Source: a virus (Duplodnaviria > Heunggongvirae > Uroviricota > Caudoviricetes). From it: a stretch of 8,882 nucleotides of DNA. Position numbers and translations under genes: made by a program. Below, piece after piece: positions 1 through 8,882 of the stretch (its first letter is position 1; the number at the start of each line of letters is the position of its first letter). The notes beneath the pieces are model-generated. The model had not been told where the DNA came from and did no database searches. It saw only the letters and a program-made list of their open reading frames with translations. The stretch is from the IMG/VR virus record IMGVR_UViG_2534681772_000013. The stretch is one strand, 5' to 3'.

Positions 1-55
1 GGTATCCGTTCTGCTGAAGTGTCATGGCGTTGATTTTACGGTGACTCTTCGACAG

Positions 56-83
56 TGAAAAGAAAAAAGGCCGCAGAGCGGCC
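56..83 (-). terminator. Putative intrinsic terminator ending the minus-strand cassette (possibly bidirectional)
   Basis: Perfect 6-bp GC stem GGCCGC(69-74)/GCGGCC(78-83) with 3-nt loop; on the minus strand it is followed by a U-run (plus-strand A-run 56-68). It lies about 110 nt downstream of the stop of the 193..747 gene. Confidence 0.5.
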
Positions 84-192
84 ATAAACACAAACAAAAA
101 TCAACAAGTTAGATAATTATCAAAGACTTACAGACACACAAAAACACAGCCAACCACAACAAATAACAGAGATGTGGTCAATTTGTGGATCA

Positions 193-747
193 TCAGCCAA
201 CAAATTTAGCAACAAATACAGCAACCGCCGCCGTGAAAATGGTTGTGCATACTGGCACAATAATGCCACTCCAACGCCACTTCGTATTATCATCAACCTT
301 GTCAAACCGCCGATTCATCTCATCCATAATCTTGTCAAAGCGTTTATCCATCGCTTCGGTAAGCTCACCCTTCAGGCTGTTAATGTCTGATTTGAGCTGC
401 TCTTTCAGGTGAGCTGTATCAGATTTAAGCTCACCTTTCAGATTCGCAATATCGCATTTAAGATCACCTTTCAGATGAGCAATGTCTGCTTTGAGCTCAC
501 CTTTCACCTCACCAACATCGGCTTTGGTTGAGAGGTTTGTAGTGCGTTCAGCAAGCGTCGCAAGGTCGTTTCTTGTTAGCGATAAATCACTTTCGAGTCG
601 CTCAATTCGCCTTTCAAGTTTATCTGACATTCCACCTCCACTACTGCCGCCATCGCCGCCATGATAAAGCACATCACGCTCAGAATGCGACATACTACCT
701 GCTGAATTACCGAAAAGGTTTCTTGCTACATTACCCATTTTCACCAT
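193..747 (-). CDS. Coiled-coil protein with Gly/Ser-rich N-terminal linker, five hendecad repeats (LKGELKxDIAx) and a single C-terminal transmembrane anchor; function unknown
   Basis: 184-aa ORF from the track. Residues 81-135 form five 11-residue repeats; the C-terminus WRWSGIIVPVCTTIFTAAVAVFVAKFVG is a hydrophobic helix. An internal ATG at 736-738 has an AGGA 8 nt upstream and may be the true start. The start overlaps the stop of the upstream zinc-ribbon gene, suggesting translational coupling. Confidence 0.6.
   Translation of the reverse strand: MVKMGNVARNLFGNSAGSMSHSERDVLYHGGDGGSSGGGMSDKLERRIERLESDLSLTRNDLATLAERTTNLSTKADVGEVKGELKADIAHLKGDLKCDIANLKGELKSDTAHLKEQLKSDINSLKGELTEAMDKRFDKIMDEMNRRFDKVDDNTKWRWSGIIVPVCTTIFTAAVAVFVAKFVG
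343..507. repeat. Five tandem copies of an approximately 33-bp unit encoding the hendecad repeats of the coiled-coil protein
   Basis: Recurring motif visible in the DNA (gagctcacctttcag / gatttaagctcacctttcag / atttaagatcacctttcag) at about 33-bp spacing, matching protein repeats VKGELKADIAH-LKGDLKCDIAN-LKGELKSDTAH-LKEQLKSDINS-LKGELTEAMDK. Confidence 0.6.
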
Positions 748-1093
748 CCTGTGCTTTGTCTTTCTCCAACCACTTCAGCACCGCAGACGTACGGTAAAGG
801 CTCAGGTAACCACAATTCAGGCAATGCAGCGTGTAATAAGTTTTGCGCATATCAGGTATGCTCTTAACATCACCCAAAAAAGTATAAGATACATAATGCT
901 TTATGTTCTCTTTAATTAACTCACTCTGCTCCTCCAAGGGTAGATTGTTAAAATTTTCTGGTTTCTTATTTTTATCCCAGCAAAGATCCATACTTTCAGG
1001 CACAGATAATCGAGACGATCCACATGAAGGGCAGACACTGGAAACCCCCTTCTCAGACAAGAAACGGAAGAAGATTTCTGGCGTAATCTCCAT
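731..1093 (-). CDS. Small zinc-ribbon protein (CPSCG ... CLNCGY), AT-rich, function unknown
   Basis: The track gives 731..1126 (131 aa). The internal ATG at 1091-1093 (MEITPEIFF...) is preceded by a strong SD (TAAGGAGCGGCTG-ATG), whereas the ATG at 1126 has only a weak AAGAAG, so 1093 is preferred. Two CxxC pairs suggest a Zn ribbon. The region is markedly AT-rich compared with the integrase. Confidence 0.55.
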   Translation of the reverse strand: MEITPEIFFRFLSEKGVSSVCPSCGSSRLSVPESMDLCWDKNKKPENFNNLPLEEQSELIKENIKHYVSYTFLGDVKSIPDMRKTYYTLHCLNCGYLSLYRTSAVLKWLEKDKAQDGENG

Positions 1094-1232
1094 CAGCCGC
1101 TCCTTATGTTTATTGACACGACTCATCGACTTCTTATTGATTTCATCAGCTTCTTCTTTGCATTTATCTTCTATATATTTCGATAGTAAATAGTCATATA
1201 ACTCTTTTTTTGTAGGTTTTTTATTTCCATAG

Positions 1233-2210
1233 TTACATTCCTCCCAAGGGATTAAACCTCACCGCATCCTGCAGGTAATCCGGCGCAAGATGGGCATAAA
1301 TCATCGTTGTCTGAATCTTTGCGTGCCCCAGAATTTTCTGGAGCGTCAGAATATTGCCGCCGTTCATCATGAAATGACTGGCGAAGGTGTGGCGCAGCGC
1401 ATGAACAGCCTGGCCGTCAGGAACATCAGGTGCGACCGTTTTGATGACATCGCGAACCAATGGATAATCCAGCGTCGGAAACACCAGTTTCCCGCCCCGT
1501 TTTTTGATCTTTTCAAACAGGCTTTCAGAAATAGGAACGGTACGGTTTTTGCTGTTCTTCGTTTTTGAAAAAGTGATTCGACAATGAAGAACACGGCGCT
1601 GCTCCAGTGCCGCTACCTCGCCCCATCGCGCCCCGGTCGACAGAAGGATTTCGACAGCCAGCCGTTCATCGGGATTTTCAGCCAGTGCATCCAGCAACTG
1701 AACACATTCAGACTTACTCAGATATCCCATTTCGCGCTCGTTAACCTTCATTCCTTTAAGGCCTTGAACGGGGTTATCGTTAAGAAAATGGCCGGATGAG
1801 ATGAGTGCGGTAAACATCGCGCTTAACGCCCCAATCTCTCGATTAATGGTGCTGGGCTGTATCCCCTGCTCTATCCTGGACACACGCAGCTCGGTGAGCA
1901 TCGTTGTATTAAGTTTATGCACGCACGGGTCATCCATTGCCTCACTCAAGCGCAGCAATTTAAGGCGCGTGTTATGCCCTGACTTCATTAGCTGACCGTG
2001 GTATTTCCACCACAAGTCAATAAGCACTGACAGCGGACGGCGATCAATGGAGTTTCCTTTCCACTCATTGTTATGCTGTTGCGCCAGCACCCACCGCTCA
2101 TATAAAACTGCATCCGATTTCGTTTTAAATTTTTTACGAATGCGCTTGCCTTTGCGCCCCTCTGGACGCATGTCAAGAAGATAACCTCCCGGAATTGATT
2201 TTATGCTCAT
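1233..2210 (-). CDS. int: Tyrosine site-specific integrase, P2-family
   Basis: C-terminal catalytic signature HALRHTFASHFMMNGGNILTLQKILGHAKIQTTMIYAHLAPDY (R, H-x-x-R, Y) and an N-terminus MSIKSIPGGYLLDMRPEGRKGKRIRKKFKTKSDAV typical of P2-like integrases. The track ORF extends to 2360, but that extension overlaps the 3' end of the repressor gene in another frame; the ATG at 2208-2210 gives a 326-aa protein of the expected size. Confidence 0.9.
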   Translation of the reverse strand: MSIKSIPGGYLLDMRPEGRKGKRIRKKFKTKSDAVLYERWVLAQQHNNEWKGNSIDRRPLSVLIDLWWKYHGQLMKSGHNTRLKLLRLSEAMDDPCVHKLNTTMLTELRVSRIEQGIQPSTINREIGALSAMFTALISSGHFLNDNPVQGLKGMKVNEREMGYLSKSECVQLLDALAENPDERLAVEILLSTGARWGEVAALEQRRVLHCRITFSKTKNSKNRTVPISESLFEKIKKRGGKLVFPTLDYPLVRDVIKTVAPDVPDGQAVHALRHTFASHFMMNGGNILTLQKILGHAKIQTTMIYAHLAPDYLQDAVRFNPLGGM

Positions 2211-2259
2211 TCGTGAAACCCCAGCGTTACAAGACCACCATGCCCCCAGCGTTCCATGA

Positions 2260-2570
2260 TTAGCCGGGCTGTGTGCCAGTCTTGCGGGATTTTTGAGAAG
2301 ACGATGTGTTTTCTGGCCCATCAGGGGAGAGAGAGGGACTGATCTGCCCTGCAGCCTCATTTGTTTTTCCCGTCATAAGCCATATAGTGTATTTTTCGAA
2401 ATCCTTAGAATTAATTACGCGATCAACAACGCTTAAACCAACCTCTCTTTTACCGCTCTCATAATTCTTTATAGTTCCGAGATTTATCCCAGTAACATCA
2501 GCAAACTCAGCTTGAGTTAACCCTTCACTTTTCCGTATCTCTTTCAGTTTTTTTCGTACCCACTTGACAT
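2260..2570 (-). pseudogene. C: P2 C-type immunity repressor (XRE-family HTH), interrupted by a 1-nt frameshift in an A7 homopolymer
   Basis: ATG at 2568-2570 reads MSSGYEKN then stops. Shifting by 1 nt at the A7 run (plus T-run 2548-2554) gives MSSGYEKKLKEIRKSEGLTQAEFADVTGINLGTIKNYESGKREVGLSVVDRVINSKDFEKYTIWLMTGKTNEAAGQISPSLSPDGPENTSSSQKSRKTGTQPG (about 103 aa). This has a clear HTH and, from memory, a P2 C-like C-terminal tail. Position and orientation relative to int match P2. Confidence 0.55.
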
Positions 2571-2661
2571 GGTGGTCTCCAGACGACTAAATTAACCCTA
2601 AAAGTCGCCTAGAGACGACTTTTAGCAACAAATAACCACAGACTGAACAGGTTATCACATC
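2571..2661. promoter_or_regulatory. Divergent immunity switch region with operator-like repeats
   Basis: 90-bp intergenic region between divergent genes. Inverted repeat CTAAAAGTCG (2598-2607) / CGACTTTTAG (2616-2625) with an 8-bp spacer; direct repeat AGACGACT at 2581-2588 and 2613-2620. Confidence 0.5.
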
Positions 2662-2940
2662 ATGACAAAGCTCTTGAACACATACGAGCAAGCGGATTTT
2701 GAGCGTTTGGCGGCGTTCTACCCATACCGCGATGAGCATGGATTACCGGTACTCGAAGAAAGCCTGAAAGATTACGCGAAGCGTACCAATCAAACTGTTA
2801 ATGCAGTGAAAAGGCAGGCTGACAGAGCAGCCCTTCCCATCAACCAAGAAGAAAAAAACTCAAAACGTACAGTAAATCTCTTCGCAATTTTCCTGAAAAC
2901 CATCAGAAACGCAGAGAAATACGTGCAGATGACAAAATAA
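2662..2940 (+). CDS. First early-operon gene; possible Cox/Apl-like small DNA-binding regulator
   Basis: 92-aa ORF divergent from the repressor. The segment DYAKRTNQTVNAVKRQADRAALPI loosely resembles the HTH region of P2 Cox as I recall it. The RBS is weak, so the start is uncertain. Confidence 0.45.
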   Translation: MTKLLNTYEQADFERLAAFYPYRDEHGLPVLEESLKDYAKRTNQTVNAVKRQADRAALPINQEEKNSKRTVNLFAIFLKTIRNAEKYVQMTK

Positions 2941-2954
2941 CGAGGTGTAATTTT

Positions 2955-3293
2955 ATGCTGAAGCAACGCCGTAATTTTTTTACCGGAACGGAACGCCACG
3001 CTAACCGTTTCGCTACCAGTGCATCACGTAGTAACTCCCGCTACAGCCTGAGCGAGACACACGCAACACCGGATGGTCACCCCGTAAAACAAATTGGTGA
3101 ACACACTTGGCTGATTGAGAAAGCTGGAATCGTGATCCACAAATGCCCACGCAATCCGTTTACCGGAAACCGCATTTTTGCATTGAGCTGTGGCGACAAT
3201 CAGTTCGGGCAGGATTTCACATTATACGAAGCACTTCGCACGGTTGATCGTCTGCTTCGCGGGCAAAATTTTATTAAACAGGCTGATTTATAA
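2955..3293 (+). CDS. Hypothetical early protein
   Basis: 112-aa ORF with a good SD (GAGGTG 7 nt upstream of the ATG at 2955); same strand and tight spacing with neighbours. No recognisable domain. Confidence 0.5.
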   Translation: MLKQRRNFFTGTERHANRFATSASRSNSRYSLSETHATPDGHPVKQIGEHTWLIEKAGIVIHKCPRNPFTGNRIFALSCGDNQFGQDFTLYEALRTVDRLLRGQNFIKQADL

Positions 3294-3303
3294 CAGGTGC
3301 TTT

Positions 3304-3591
3304 ATGACCAAAGACCATGCACAAGGTGTATTTATCCGTTTTATTGATTTTCGCGGTGAACTGTTATTACGTGCATCCGCTATTGACGGAGTGACTCCGG
3401 CGGGTAAAAACGGAGCCGACGAAGCCACTTACGTTTATCTGAACGGCACGCGACTGCTTGTGGAACTTCCGTACCAGATCGTACGAGAAATCATTAGCGA
3501 AGCTGAAAAGGCACGCCAAGTTAATGGCGATGAACCCTATATCGAAATTATTTGTATGGATTCAGAAGCTGAAATACAGAAAGCAGATTAA
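3304..3591 (+). CDS. Hypothetical early protein
   Basis: ATG at 3304 preceded by AGGTG. Translation MTKDHAQGVFIRFIDFRGELLLRASAIDG... The longer track ORF 3190..3591 overlaps the previous gene and is less likely. Confidence 0.5.
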   Translation: MTKDHAQGVFIRFIDFRGELLLRASAIDGVTPAGKNGADEATYVYLNGTRLLVELPYQIVREIISEAEKARQVNGDEPYIEIICMDSEAEIQKAD

Positions 3592-3603
3592 AGGGCGTTG
3601 TGA

Positions 3604-3608
3604 TGGGC
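3604..3608. repeat. IS2 target-site duplication, left copy (TGGGC)
   Basis: The 5-bp TGGGC immediately outside the IS2 end at 3609 is identical to 4940-4944 outside the other end. Confidence 0.8.
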
Positions 3609-3619
3609 TGGATTTGCCC

Positions 3620-4525
3620 CTATATTTCCAGACATCTGTTATCACTTAACCCATTACAAGCCCGCTGCCGCAGATATTCCCGTGGCGAGCGATAACCCAG
3701 CGCACTATGCGGATGCCATTCGTTATAATGCTCGAACGCCTCTGCAAGGTTCTTTGCTGCCGTTAACCCGTCTGGTTTGGGCATGATACTGATGTAGTCA
3801 CGCTTTATCGTTTTCACGAAGCTCTCTGCTATTCCGTTACTCTCCGGACTCCGCACCGCCGTGTTCTTCGGTTCAAGTCCCAACATCCGGGCGAACTGGC
3901 GTGTTTCATTAGCCCGGTAGCATGAACCATTATCCGTCAGCCACTCCACTGGAGACGACGGAAGATCGTTGCCGAAGCGGCGTTCCACCGCTCCCAGCAT
4001 GACGTCCTGTACTGTTTCACTGTTGAAGCCGCCGGTAGTGACCGCCCAGTGCAGTGCCTCACGATCACAGCAGTCCAGCGCGAACGTGACACGCAGTCTC
4101 TCTCCGTTATCACAGCAGAACTCGAACCCGTCAGAGCACCATCGCTGATTGCTTTCTTTCACGGCCACTCTGCCTGTATGTGCCCGTTTCGATGGCGGTA
4201 CAGCAGGTTTTCGCTCAAGCAACAGCGCATTCTGGCGCATGATCCGGTAAACACGTTTGGCATTGATCGCAGGCATACCATCAAGTTCTGCCTGTCTGCG
4301 AAGCAGCGCCCATACCCGACGATAACCATACGTGGGCAGCTCTCCGATAACATGGTGTATACGGAGAAGCACATCCGTATCATCAGTGTGACGACTGCGG
4401 CGGCCATCCATCCAGTCATCGGTTCGTCTGAGAATGACGTGCAACTGCGCACGCGACACCCGGAGACAACGGCTGACTAAGCTTACTCCCCATCCCCGGG
4501 CAATAAGGGCGCGTGCGCTATCCAC
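3620..4525 (-). CDS. insD: IS2 transposase OrfB (DDE integrase domain)
   Basis: 301-aa translation matches IS2 InsD as recalled ([34 protein letters not shown] ... [14 protein letters not shown]). Confidence 0.93.
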
Positions 4526-4848
4526 TTTTTTGCCCGTCCATATTCAACGGCTTCTTTGAGGAGTTCATTTTCCATCGTTTTCTTGCCGAGCAGGCGCTGG
4601 AGTTCTTTAATCTGCTTCATGGCGGCAGCAAGTTCAGAGGCAGGAACAACCTGTTCTCCGGCGGCGACAGCAGTAAGACTTCCTTCCTGGTATTGCTTAC
4701 GCCAGAGAAATAACTGGCTGGCTGCTACACCATGTTGCCGGGCAACGAGGGAGACCGTCATCCCCGGTTCAAAGCTCTGCTGAACAATTGCGATCTTTTC
4801 CTGTGTGGTACGCCGTCTGCGTTTCTCCGGCCCTAAGACATCAATCAT
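4483..4848 (-). CDS. insC: IS2 transposase OrfA (HTH)
   Basis: Translation from the internal ATG at 4846-4848 is [56 protein letters not shown]... (121 aa). The track's longer 136-aa start lies in the IS2 terminal region and is not the native start. Confidence 0.9.
4506..4512 (-). other. IS2 programmed -1 ribosomal frameshift heptamer A-AAA-AAG (produces the InsCD fusion transposase)
   Basis: Minus-strand GCA-AAA-AAG-TGG in the insC frame, located in the insC/insD overlap, as is typical for the IS3 family. Confidence 0.7.
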
Positions 4849-4938
4849 CTGTTCTCCAATGACTAGTCTAAAAACTAGTATTAAGACTATCACTTATTTA
4901 AGTGATACTGGTTGTCTGGAGATTCAGGGGGGCAGTCT

Positions 4939-5181
4939 ATGGGCAAAGAATATAAAACTCTCATTAACAAAGCACTTGAGCGTTTTTATTTTCGCTTAAG
5001 TGCATCAGGCGCTCATGCTGAACGTGCGGCCCGTGACTCATTGACCAGAGCAATCCGAAGTCTGTATGACGTGGCTTTTTACGCTGATGATCTGGATGCA
5101 CTTAACGAACTTTCCGAGCTGATCTGTGCCGCAGAATGCGGGGAACATATTGAACCGTATAAGCTGGGAAATATCGCATGA
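4939..5181 (+). CDS. Hypothetical early protein whose start codon is split by the IS2 insertion
   Basis: ATG-GGC-AAA-GAA... encodes MGKEYKTLINKALERFYFRLSASGAHAERAARDSLTRAIRSLYDVAFYADDLDALNELSELICAAECGEHIEPYKLGNIA (80 aa). The ATG is rebuilt from the terminal A of IS2 plus the TG of the duplication; the original RBS and ATG (3591-3605) are now 1.3 kb upstream. Confidence 0.45.
   Translation: MGKEYKTLINKALERFYFRLSASGAHAERAARDSLTRAIRSLYDVAFYADDLDALNELSELICAAECGEHIEPYKLGNIA
4940..4944. repeat. IS2 target-site duplication, right copy (TGGGC)
   Basis: Identical to 3604-3608. Confidence 0.8.
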
Positions 5182-5291
5182 GTATATTTATCTCATGGCT
5201 TGTTCTGATTATTTCGGTGGTCTGCGCCATTGGGATTATGCGAATTATTAATTCAGTGAAAAAGATCGAGCGTTTTTTCTCTGATGAATAA
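5178..5291 (+). CDS. Small hydrophobic peptide (37 aa, one predicted TM helix)
   Basis: ATGA overlap with the stop of the upstream gene. Translation MSIFISWLVLIISVVCAIGIMRIINSVKKIERFFSDE. Below the ORF-track size cutoff, so not listed there. Confidence 0.35.
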   Translation: MSIFISWLVLIISVVCAIGIMRIINSVKKIERFFSDE

Positions 5292-5383
5292 CGATACAAA
5301 TAAAACATCAAATTAAATAAGAAAACGTGAAAACCATCCGTATTAATGGAGGTATTCGCACGCGTAAATAACGGAGATATAAA

Positions 5384-5800
5384 ATGAAAGCAAAAGAAGA
5401 AGGCATTATCGACACATTAAAAAAAATATCAGAAGCGGAAGATGAAATGGCTAAAGATGCCGTGAAGCGTAGCCAACATATGGCAGCACTTCACGCACTG
5501 ACCATTGCAAAAATCACCGCTGACGCAGCCAAAATTATTGAGGAACAGGGCAAAGAAATCGACACTCTTAAAACACAGTCAACAGTTGCAGCCATGAATC
5601 CGTCCAGCATTGGACGCCGCATTTACATTCTTGGTTCGGCAATAATGACGCAATACACCATTATTGCCGAACTGCACGGCAAATACCTGATAACGCCTTA
5701 CCACACAAAAGAGTCAGAGCTTCTGACAAATCTCCGCCTGATAGAACGCTCTCAAGCTGTATTCATTGATGACACGCAACGTGCCGTATTTAACGCATAG
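5384..5800 (+). CDS. Hypothetical protein, AT-richer than its neighbours (possible moron)
   Basis: 138-aa ORF with GGAG SD upstream of the ATG at 5384, preceded by about 90 bp of AT-rich non-coding sequence. No recognisable domain. Confidence 0.55.
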   Translation: MKAKEEGIIDTLKKISEAEDEMAKDAVKRSQHMAALHALTIAKITADAAKIIEEQGKEIDTLKTQSTVAAMNPSSIGRRIYILGSAIMTQYTIIAELHGKYLITPYHTKESELLTNLRLIERSQAVFIDDTQRAVFNA

Positions 5801-5823
5801 GGTTACTGGACAAAAGGGGCGCA

Positions 5824-6027
5824 ATGGCAATTAAGCATTTTCCCGTCGTTCGCTTTACCTCCAGAGGGCGCGAATACGAGGTCGACGAACGCCTGATTAC
5901 CACTATCGACAAACATCGTTCGGAAAAGGATGCACACCACATCTACCTCACTGACGGCACTTACTTCTGCGCCACCAACGTGGCGCGAGTAAATCTTATC
6001 CGACAGGTACAGGAGCCACGCAGATGA
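5824..6027 (+). CDS. Hypothetical small early protein
   Basis: 67-aa ORF with AAGGGG SD; its stop overlaps the next start (ATGA at 6024-6027). Confidence 0.5.
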   Translation: MAIKHFPVVRFTSRGREYEVDERLITTIDKHRSEKDAHHIYLTDGTYFCATNVARVNLIRQVQEPRR

Positions 6028-6290
6028 CCATTCTGGACTACATCGCTACTCATCCGGGGTGTAGCGGCGGAGAGATCGCCGCAGCACTGAATACCCCAAC
6101 CACAGCCATTAATGCTGAGTTACGCCGACTCTGGCGCGGCGGCTTAGTCATCAGAACAAACCGCAGCACAGGTGGTCGCGCTCGCAAAACAGGAGGCCAG
6201 GCTTCTTACCACGTAAACCCGATGCCGTTCGGGTGTAGCAATCCACTTACTCACATGTTTAACCAGCTACTGAAGGAAGCCAGAGCATGA
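6024..6290 (+). CDS. Small winged-helix-like DNA-binding protein
   Basis: 88-aa protein MTILDYIATHPGCSGGEIAAALNTPTTAINAELRRLWRGGLVIRTNRS... with a pattern typical of wHTH regulators; translationally coupled to both neighbours by ATGA overlaps. Confidence 0.55.
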   Translation: MTILDYIATHPGCSGGEIAAALNTPTTAINAELRRLWRGGLVIRTNRSTGGRARKTGGQASYHVNPMPFGCSNPLTHMFNQLLKEARA

Positions 6291-6577
6291 GCACCATCAA
6301 CCACCAGAAGCTACGCGAACTGGCATTTGCCCTGCAACGAATGGCAACGCCTCAAAAATTACTGGCATTTCGCGCAATGCTCTCGCCGTCTGCTGTGCTG
6401 GCACTGCTGAATGAGCTGGAGCACGCCAGAACCACGGCTCCTGCCATTCGCCTGACGCTCCATCATGAAATCGCTGATTTCTGCGCGACGTTGGAGGCGC
6501 CGGGCGAACCGGAAACGCCGGAAGCAATACAGCAAGAGCTGCTGCAACGCATTGACAAGGTTTTTGATTTTTTCTGA
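6287..6577 (+). CDS. Hypothetical protein, possibly Ead/Ea22-like
   Basis: 96-aa ORF with an ATGA start overlap. The motif SPSAVLALLNELEHARTTA resembles the conserved region of Ead/Ea22-like phage proteins as I recall it (weak). Confidence 0.5.
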   Translation: MSTINHQKLRELAFALQRMATPQKLLAFRAMLSPSAVLALLNELEHARTTAPAIRLTLHHEIADFCATLEAPGEPETPEAIQQELLQRIDKVFDFF

Positions 6578-6708
6578 ACCAGTAAGAAACCAGAACATGC
6601 ACACACAAAAAAAACCGCTTGCCATGCCGCAATCAGTCAGGTTACATTTCCGCTGCACCTCATAAAACGGGTGCCGGGATTTCCACCCCGCTGACAACTA
6701 CAGCGCAC

Positions 6709-6729
6709 AACCGCGCCAGCGGTTTTTTT
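6709..6729 (+). terminator. Putative intrinsic terminator within the non-coding gap
   Basis: AACCGC-GCCA-GCGGTT stem-loop followed by a T7 run (6723-6729). Confidence 0.45.
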
Positions 6730-6908
6730 GTGCGTACTGTATCGCCACGTCTTTTTCGCACACGAATTATGGTGGGGCGTACGGGGCCGACTTCGGTCGG
6801 GCCGGGTTCTGTAGTTGCCGGTTGTGGAAACCCTGTACGTCTCACCACCCCGAGTTTTCCACCTCTGGATGGTGAGTTTTCAAAACTTGCAACTACAGAG
6901 GCCACACC

Positions 6909-7139
6909 ATGGCAAACCGCAAACAGCACCGCGCTATCGCGGAGCGTCGTCACATCCAGACTGAAATCAACCGCAGACTTTTCCGCGCATCACGCGTCGC
7001 GCAAATCATGCACATCAATATGCTGCATGAGCGCAGCCACGCACTATCAAACATCTATTCCGCCGCTGTTTTCAGCTATCTGGCGGATGATCTGCACGAG
7101 CTTCAACAGCTCATCCAGCAGCAAAACAAACTCCATTAA
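6909..7139 (+). CDS. Hypothetical small basic protein
   Basis: 76-aa ORF with AGAGG SD 8 nt upstream. Its composition is sensible, unlike the overlapping 198-aa track ORF. Confidence 0.5.
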   Translation: MANRKQHRAIAERRHIQTEINRRLFRASRVAQIMHINMLHERSHALSNIYSAAVFSYLADDLHELQQLIQQQNKLH

Positions 7140-7211
7140 TTCCTGTTCCGGGCCTTTCCTGCACCTTGCGGCGGGAGGCCTTCGCACATCTGTAACAAGA
7201 GGATTGCCGCA

Positions 7212-7577
7212 ATGATTCTCGCCAACGACTTTCTTGAATACCTGCTCAACACAGAACGTGATCTTGCCGCTCGCGTGCGTGAACGTTATGACATGTACCT
7301 GAAATCCCTGCCTGTACCGCAGCTCGCTGACGGAAAGATTGTTATTGATGGTCGCTACATGATTGACAGCCACGAGGGAAATTACAGGCTTTACCGCATT
7401 GAAGGTGGCACCCCGTCCGTTATTGGCATTTACCAGCGCCCATCCTCTTCAATCGTCGATGTGATTGCCGACAGCATCCGCATCACACATCGCCATGCCG
7501 ACACAGAAGACACCGTGCTGGAAATTCAGCGGCTGGCTACAGTCTGCCGCGACACCCTGAATGGCATGACGAAGTAA
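7212..7577 (+). CDS. Hypothetical protein immediately upstream of the replication gene
   Basis: 121-aa ORF with AAGAGGA SD; ends 6 nt before the gpA start. Confidence 0.55.
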   Translation: MILANDFLEYLLNTERDLAARVRERYDMYLKSLPVPQLADGKIVIDGRYMIDSHEGNYRLYRIEGGTPSVIGIYQRPSSSIVDVIADSIRITHRHADTEDTVLEIQRLATVCRDTLNGMTK

Positions 7578-7583
7578 ATCACT

Positions 7584-8882
7584 ATGACGGCAGAGTACAT
7601 CAGGGACTGGCAACAACCGCGCCACGCAGTGGGGCGTGAAGGAACGGGGATCCCCGCTCCTGAATCCGCGCTTTCCTCCTGGCTGGATGCCTACCGGGCA
7701 GAGAACGAGCGCCGCCAGGAAATGGCTGATGCGGCGTTCTCCGCCACGCCGCTGGGCAACCTGATTAATAAAAGCCTGGACGCACAGGAAAAACAGGACA
7801 AAACCATCACACTGGCAGGAGACGCCAGAAAACAGGCACGCGGCGCGGTGGATGAAGCCATGGCCTCGCTGCGCCTGCTGCCGTCCTATCTGCGCGATCC
7901 GCTTATTCGCCACCTCTCCTTCCTTCGCAAAAAACAGGAAGCCGATCGCCGGAAAGGCAAAAAGAGCTGGCAGGCGGAACGCTATGCACGCGGAACCCTG
8001 CGCAAAATATTCGAACGTCTGGATCGCACTGACGGACGCTGGCTGACACCGGGTTATCGCTCCCTTGCCGGACGCGAACGCCTGGACGATTTGCTTTACC
8101 TGCCGCAGCTCAACAAACACCAGATACAGACGCTGGCCACCATGACGGCAGCGATGTTCAGCAGCACCTTCGAAAAACTCTGCGATGGCTTTGGCGCGAC
8201 TGATGGCGAACTGACCATGGATGTATCGCTGAAGGCGTATCAGATGCTGGCCCGCATGGCGTTACACCTGCACGCTATGCCTCCACATTATGACGCACTG
8301 ACAACAGATAAAGACCGGAGGAACGAACCGGACACAGAGCTGCTGCCGGGCGCAATCCTTCGCCTGACCTGTGCGGAATGGTGGAAACGCAAACTGTGGC
8401 TGTTACGTTGCGAGTGGAGAGAAGAACAACTCCGCGCCGCCTGTCTGGTTTCCAGAAAAACATCGCCCTATCTGAGCCAGGACGCGTTAAGCGAGTTTCG
8501 CGCACAGCGCGAGAAAACACGCGATTTCCTGAAAAGTTTCATGCTGGAAAACGAAGACGGGTTCACGATTGATCTCGAGACAGTGTATTACGCGGGAGTA
8601 AGTAACCCGGTTCACCGTAAGGCAGAAATGATGGCCACCATGAAGGGACTGGAACTTCTGGCCGAAGCCCGTGGCGACAGAGCGGTGTTTCTGACTGTCA
8701 CCTGCCCGTCAAAATACCACGCAACAACAGAGAACGGTCATCCGAATCCCAAATGGAACGGGGCCACCATGCGCGACTCCAGCGATTACCTGGTTAACAC
8801 GTTTTTTTGCGGCGGTCCGCAAGAAACTGAACCGCGACGGCCTGCGCTGGTATGGCATCCGCACGGTGGAGCCTCACCATGA
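7584..8882 (+). CDS. A: P2 gpA-family rolling-circle replication initiator, frameshifted at a T7 run and truncated by the window end
   Basis: The 432-aa frame-0 translation ends ...NTFFCGGPQETEPRRPALVWHPHGGASP. After the T-run 8811-8817 the +1 frame reads AAVRKKLNRDGLRWYGIRTVEPHH, which matches the conserved gpA-family motif as I recall it, and stays open to the window end. A T6 run would give one continuous ORF. Confidence 0.8.
   Translation: MTAEYIRDWQQPRHAVGREGTGIPAPESALSSWLDAYRAENERRQEMADAAFSATPLGNLINKSLDAQEKQDKTITLAGDARKQARGAVDEAMASLRLLPSYLRDPLIRHLSFLRKKQEADRRKGKKSWQAERYARGTLRKIFERLDRTDGRWLTPGYRSLAGRERLDDLLYLPQLNKHQIQTLATMTAAMFSSTFEKLCDGFGATDGELTMDVSLKAYQMLARMALHLHAMPPHYDALTTDKDRRNEPDTELLPGAILRLTCAEWWKRKLWLLRCEWREEQLRAACLVSRKTSPYLSQDALSEFRAQREKTRDFLKSFMLENEDGFTIDLETVYYAGVSNPVHRKAEMMATMKGLELLAEARGDRAVFLTVTCPSKYHATTENGHPNPKWNGATMRDSSDYLVNTFFCGGPQETEPRRPALVWHPHGGASP

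Follow-up and report, generated by a model that had tools for sequence, protein, structure and literature searches.

Insertion sequence (IS) elements that land in prophages are commonplace and contribute to prophage decay. Among the prophages of Escherichia coli and Shigella, IS2 is known from the integrase region of SfX and from Stx2 phages. For ampC, an IS2-generated fusion promoter was reportedly described by Jaurin and Normark in 1983. In such fusion promoters (ampC, acrEF and neoR), IS2 lies immediately upstream of a coding sequence, and activation needs the right inverted repeat (IRR), where the documented outward -35 of the element (its junction promoter) sits, to stand beside the gene (PMC9330008). 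IS2 insertions can be polar on operons: in galEP3 (gal3), IS2 is inserted where the gal operon begins, and the reporter based on this insertion uses the element as a cassette of Rho-dependent terminators (PMC3737525). Here, we describe a complete IS2 in IMG/VR virus record IMGVR_UViG_2534681772_000013, of which the whole 8,882-nucleotide stretch is called the window below. The element interrupts the start codon of the DUF4754 gene in the early operon of a prophage resembling P88, a P2-like phage induced from E. coli K88 (PMC5285337). We consider it highly probable that IS2 recently inserted into the early lytic operon of this P88-like prophage beside btuC and that downstream expression driven from the presumed early promoter (Pe) should fall.

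The locus resembles galEP3 in that the same element sits close to the beginning of an operon gene and a Rho-dependent loss of downstream expression is expected; it differs in that the target is a prophage early operon, that the cut falls inside the start codon and that polarity is here predicted from sequence. With the IS2 fusion promoters it shares the position of the element immediately upstream of a coding sequence, whereas the end beside the gene is the left inverted repeat (IRL) and not IRR. From other IS-disrupted prophages it does not differ in principle; the event belongs to the same class, and the copy in the window happens to regenerate a start codon.

The inserted element displays every sequence-testable defining feature of IS2. 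Many chromosomes and plasmids of E. coli contain annotated IS2 copies that are 100% identical to it over all 1331 bp. On the plus strand of the window, its 5' end reads TGGATTTGCCCCTATATTTCC, and the opposite end, once reverse-complemented, reads TAGACTGCCCCCCTGAATCTCC. Published IS2 anatomy comprises a 41-bp IRR whose bottom strand starts with TGG and a 42-bp IRL starting with TAG, with TTAA at residues 39-42 of the left end, ATAAGT at 43-48 and the TGAT of a weak inward promoter, P_IRL, at 48-51 (PMC3299598). When the sequence was read against this residue numbering, both ends of the window copy agreed with it base for base: IRR and IRL are imperfect repeats of each other, the OrfA-binding TAAATAA motif is present, and the TGAT of P_IRL lies just inside IRL. 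Between the ends are two overlapping open reading frames (ORFs), encoding an OrfA with a helix-turn-helix (HTH) domain and an OrfB with a DDE/rve core, joined by the A6G -1 frameshift window. Both frames run on the minus strand, against the direction of the prophage early genes. The copy is intact and presumably still active. IS2 is multicopy in E. coli: genomes carry it at a median of 3 places and at most 41.

The pentamer TGGGC flanks IS2 on each side and is present as a single copy in the empty site of relatives, the chance of two 5-mers matching being about 1 in 1024. Deletion of IS2 and one TGGGC in silico yielded GTGATGGGCAAAG, the same as in IS-free relatives, and the healed junction with its flanks, TAAAGGGCGTTGTGATGGGCAAAGAATAT, matches both phage P88 and the prophage of E. 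coli TW10590, which lacks the IS, without a difference. The same holds for a further reading of the healed site, GATTAAAGGGCGTTGTGATGGGCAAAGAATATAAAAC, which is identical in the same region of both. The ORF restored in this way is window 4939..5181. A sequence-only reading of the window had named the element as IS2, inserted precisely at the start codon of an early gene, in the orientation opposite to the early operon, flanked by a 5-bp TGGGC duplication and rebuilding the downstream ATG with its own terminal A. These claims stood when the length, ends and identity of the element were checked and the flanking 5-mers re-inspected, and the comparison with IS-free relatives that it had proposed revealed a contiguous ancestral ORF in TW10590 and P88, identical to the healed sequence.

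In the mechanism we propose, the transposase would have made a cut staggered by the usual 5 bp around TGGGC, and both junctions retain ATGGGC. At the left junction, the native ribosome-binding site (RBS) would start a 30-codon junk ORF that runs into IRR. At the right junction, the A of the downstream ATG (position 4939) is the terminal base of IRL, and the G-run of IRL (4926..4932) forms a Shine-Dalgarno (SD)-like AGGGGGG seven bases 5' of the rebuilt ATG, which would leave the DUF4754 ORF translatable in principle. Regeneration of the start codon is a coincidence between the terminal A of IS2 and a target that starts with TG; no mechanism is involved.

The filled site appears to be private to one strain. 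It was found in none of 5,426 complete E. coli genomes searched with a 200-nt left-junction query and a 4.3-kb region query, and the exact filled-junction patterns were found neither among GTDB species representatives nor in JGI metagenomes. The empty site was present in 1,344 complete genomes (300-nt healed-junction query, coverage of at least 80%). The exact 432-aa gpA product of the window is on record in a single contig, AIHG01000006.1 of assembly GCA_000250335.2 (209,500 nt), and this source contig ends inside gpA, 43 nt past the window. The same prophage occupies the equivalent chromosomal site in E. coli TW10590 with no IS2 there, at about 99.9% identity across the prophage part of the window, 100% identity over the 1.6-kb btu flank and zero substitutions in window 1..8225; a plasmid of TW10590 bears the identical IS2 variant. 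Because the filled site is private and the near-identical TW10590 has the empty site, the insertion must be very recent and, on present data, is limited to one strain. The event is routine prophage damage.

The window represents the left arm of a prophage of the P2 family and of P88/Xuanwuvirus (Peduoviridae) type, lying beside btuC (btuCED). The early operon, whose last gene encodes a GPA-type endonuclease, diverges from genes for a tyrosine integrase and a C-type HTH repressor; within the window, Pfam matches were obtained for Int_N/Phage_integrase and Phage_GPA, and the HTH repressor was seen in relatives. From window 2989 onward, nucleotide identity to P88, Xuanwuvirus P884B11 and related phages is 93-94%. 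P88 shares the order DUF4761, orf95, DUF4754, 37-aa membrane protein, MarR-like protein, isrK, C4, derepression protein and gpA; it differs in having no IS2 and in an immunity region (C/Cox) unlike that of the window, the alignment starting only at 2989. The coordinates of all features are collected in Table 1.

Table 1. Features of the 8,882-nt window around the IS2 insertion (coordinates are those of the window).
Feature	Position	Strand	Remarks
Tyrosine integrase	about 1232..2209	-	Pfam Int_N/Phage_integrase
HTH C-type repressor	about 2259..2570	-	HTH repressor in relatives
Presumed early promoter Pe, TTGACA-18-TAAATT	2564..2593	+	Strong promoter-like site facing the C-repressor gene; by analogy with P2/186
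First early gene, 92 aa, in Cox position	2662..2940	+	
DUF4761 gene	2955..3293	+	Gene 5' of orf95
orf95 (95 aa, phrog_3800), intact	3304..3591	+	Stop 11 nt before the ancestral ATG
Neo-ORF made by the insertion, 30 codons	3603..3695	+	Native RBS and ATG-GGC fused to IRR
Target-site duplication TGGGC, left copy	3604..3608		Bases 2-6 of the ancestral DUF4754 ORF
Complete IS2 (IS3 family)	3609..4939	-	Exactly 1331 bp; by length, ends and identity to annotated copies
IRR, 41-bp right inverted repeat	3609..3649	-	Plus strand reads TGGATTTGCCCC...; ends compared with published anatomy (PMC3299598, PMC9330008)
IS2 orfB (InsD, 301 aa)	3620..4525	-	HTH_21; rve and rve_3 (DDE core)
A6G programmed -1 frameshift window (AAAAAAG), intact	4525..4531	-	By sequence; PMC3299598
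IS2 orfA (InsC, 121 aa)	4483..4848	-	HTH_Tnp_1
IRL, 42-bp left inverted repeat	4898..4939	-	Minus strand TAGACTGCCCCCC...CACTTAA; ends compared with PMC3299598
Target-site duplication TGGGC, right copy	4940..4944		Identical to left copy
DUF4754 gene, 80 aa, intact ORF, P88 gp06 homologue	4939..5181	+	Pfam DUF4754 1-80/80; phrog_2549 1-80/80
37-aa membrane protein gene	5178..5291	+	ATGA overlap with DUF4754 gene
orf138, orf67, MarR-like winged HTH protein gene, orf96	between 5291 and the non-coding gap	+	orf138 at 5384..5800
isrK promoter-like site TTGCCA-18-TACATT	6619..6648	+	Its -10 ends 7 nt ahead of isrK (5' end by Rfam)
isrK-family small RNA gene	6655..6729	+	Rfam 63.6 bits, gathering threshold 50
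C4-family antisense RNA	6765..6852	+	Rfam 80.5 bits, threshold 45; upstream of the 76-aa 'derepression' gene
76-aa 'derepression' protein gene	6909..7139	+	3' of the non-coding gap
orf121, then GPA-type replication endonuclease gpA	gpA from 7584	+	Pfam Phage_GPA

Polarity of IS2 on the genes downstream is plausible. Before reaching DUF4754, RNA polymerase starting at Pe would have to make about 1.25 kb of C-rich antisense IS2 RNA, untranslated after codon 30 of the junction ORF. The plus-strand RNA across IS2 contains 29% C versus 24% G, with 78-nt windows reaching 33-37% C. Because this RNA is both C-rich and untranslated, Rho-dependent termination is expected within it, and expression from Pe should drop sharply for DUF4754 and the genes behind it, at least as far as the isrK promoter at about 6620. 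The arrangement would correspond to the classical polar 'orientation I' of IS2, with the transposase directed against the operon. We infer this polarity, and any loss of phage viability, from the arrangement of the locus.

The -35 in IRR, the only documented outward promoter element of IS2, points leftward, away from DUF4754, and the end that abuts the gene is IRL; since IRR faces upstream, its -35 cannot switch on DUF4754. A fusion promoter formed by IRR with the left flank was considered and rejected, as the flank has CCCATC or CCATCA at the required -10 place. No plus-strand promoter-like site lying wholly inside IS2 reached the standard scan threshold. A hybrid promoter-like site, TTGTGA-17-TATATT (9/12, 3598..3626, plus strand), has its -35 in phage DNA and its -10 in IRR and is directed into IS2; it was given no weight, such sites being no commoner in the region than in shuffled sequences.

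Several points weigh against a sharp fall in expression, or against reading its consequences from this locus. Which orientation bears the terminators is left unstated in the galEP3 reporter study (PMC3737525). Just inside IRL, a weak plus-strand promoter-like site, TTAAGA-17-GATACT (8/12, 4881..4909), is directed towards DUF4754, with a consensus match that occurs at chance frequency. Pairing with the anti-SD was computed at -10.2 kcal/mol for the IS2-derived leader versus -4.8 kcal/mol for the native one, and the local RNA fold, also in silico, partly buries the IRL-derived SD-like run. Some residual expression is thus possible on account of that run and the weak 4881..4909 site, and in this model residual DUF4754 expression could be appreciable. 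Moreover, the remainder of the prophage lies on other contigs, beyond the break in gpA.

In the likeliest of the alternatives, the insertion is near-neutral: DUF4754 would be dispensable or still expressed by read-through or by weak transcription from the IS2 end, gpA and its neighbours would be driven from promoters 3' of IS2 (that of isrK or others), and the prophage would still be inducible. We regard this as unlikely. In its favor, the DUF4754 ORF, the SD-like run and the ATG are all kept, the weak outward promoter-like site lies close by, and between IS2 and gpA there is an isrK gene, also conserved in P88 and TW10590, that has a promoter-like site and a terminator of its own. In Gifsy-1, RNA initiated at the isrK promoter is either terminated there or extended past the terminator, and the downstream mRNA is made by this read-through (PMC4825925). 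Six further early ORFs (5178..6577) nevertheless stand between IS2 and the isrK promoter, and the promoter scan found no promoter-like site of 10/12 or better across 5178..6577. In P2 and 186, furthermore, the replication genes depend on the early promoter. A LexA box (CTGT-N8-ACAG) marking an SOS promoter 3' of IS2 was also sought and rejected; only 1-mismatch matches were found, at chance frequency and none of them in 6578..6908.

The same region bears on how far polarity might reach. The isrK small RNA ends 3' in a hairpin and a run of seven T, forming an intrinsic terminator, and is followed by a C4-family antisense RNA; both occupy the gap between orf96 and the derepression gene, and both are conserved in TW10590 and P88. 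Lying just 5' of the derepression gene, orf121 and gpA, the two RNAs have the look of an antirepressor module under RNA control within a P2-family early region. Since the isrK promoter-like site, the terminator and the C4 RNA intervene, gpA is not demonstrably on one uninterrupted Pe transcript. Polarity extending to gpA is possible, and the claim of the sequence-only reading that IS2 should be strongly polar on all downstream early genes including gpA was overstated. As a separate observation, part of the isrK/C4 pair is annotated in P88 as a minus-strand hypothetical coding sequence (5033..5221).

True domestication, or grounding, is highly improbable. Here, IS2 polarity would block replication and late functions, loss of the C repressor and gpA would have been allowed or have followed, and the host would keep a locked-in remnant. 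In the window as given, the reading frame of the C repressor does break at codon 8 and gpA is reduced to 432 of 940 codons, and a repressor-null prophage would be tolerable only with lytic functions blocked. The lesions themselves argue otherwise. IS2 aside, four substitutions and five single-base indels separate the window from TW10590. All five indels (1217, 2548, 6568, 6607 and 8802) lie in homopolymers of 6-8 bases and go in both directions, falling in 4 of the 10 window runs of at least 7 bases. Taken at face value, they would shift the frame of the C repressor at codon 8 (2548), stop gpA at codon 432 (8802), shorten a 166-aa ORF (1217) and alter the C-terminal residues encoded by orf96 (6568). 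Sequencing error is favored because the indels are homopolymer-only and bidirectional, with no substitution over 1..8225; they are probably errors of the draft assembly and not decay, and on this pure homopolymer pattern we rejected real decay of the repressor and gpA as the leading view. The four substitutions are all in gpA (8226..8823), and three of them, like the gpA frameshift, fall within about 200 nt of the contig end. The last 660 nt (8226..8882) hold all four substitutions and one indel, which suggests either that the assembly broke at a repeat, such as a second P2-like gpA, or that sequence quality was low at the contig end.

Domestication would further imply a lesion that is fixed or lineage-wide and retained under selection. 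The filled site is instead known from one draft assembly, with no sign of fixation or selection, and its empty counterpart from 1,344 genomes including the nearly identical TW10590. The suggestion of the earlier reading that this was a domestication event thus finds no support. A two-hit variant supposes that the frameshifts are real, that the IS2 block made loss of the C repressor tolerable, that the first early gene, DUF4761 and orf95 are constitutive from a derepressed Pe, and that the left end of IS2 donates the SD sequence and start codon to DUF4754. We consider this highly improbable; if the indels were real, such a locked prophage would gain weight. Least credible of all is an assembly artefact, with an IS2 copy misplaced into the prophage of a draft genome: the element is multicopy and the contig breaks 43 nt beyond the window, but a misassembly would not yield a perfect 5-bp duplication, exact termini, a 1331-bp insert and base-exact restoration of the ancestral sequence.

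For annotation, 4939..5181 is best recorded as an intact DUF4754 ORF cut off from its promoter, and the prophage flagged as probably impaired. Beyond this, a recent IS2 insertion with predicted polarity matters little, being one more case of IS-mediated prophage disruption. As a by-product, the source strain, which has IS2, and TW10590, which lacks it at this site, form a natural near-isogenic pair, usable for studying IS2 polarity in the orientation of the window. The pair could also tell from which promoters gpA is expressed in phages of the P88 type, given the isrK and C4 RNAs in their early region.

A sister P88-like prophage carries an insertion of its own. In E. coli 23CRST024 (NZ_AP045783.1, locus 2153..3375), an independent IS5 has entered the DUF4761 gene at its 3' end, two genes ahead of DUF4754, with its transposase likewise opposed to the early operon.

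Outside the early region, two cargo-like genes on the minus strand (193..747 and 731..1126) lie between btuC and the integrase gene. Their products are a DUF1640 coiled-coil/membrane protein and a CxxC-pair protein, the latter of 166 aa in TW10590. At the chromosomal edge of the window (1..130, minus strand), a sub-threshold Rfam match to the enterobacterial small RNA STnc540 was recorded (21.2 bits versus a gathering score of 38, E = 0.42); this stretch, in the DNA between btuC and the prophage end, contains a GGCCGC..GCGGCC hairpin followed by a U-run.

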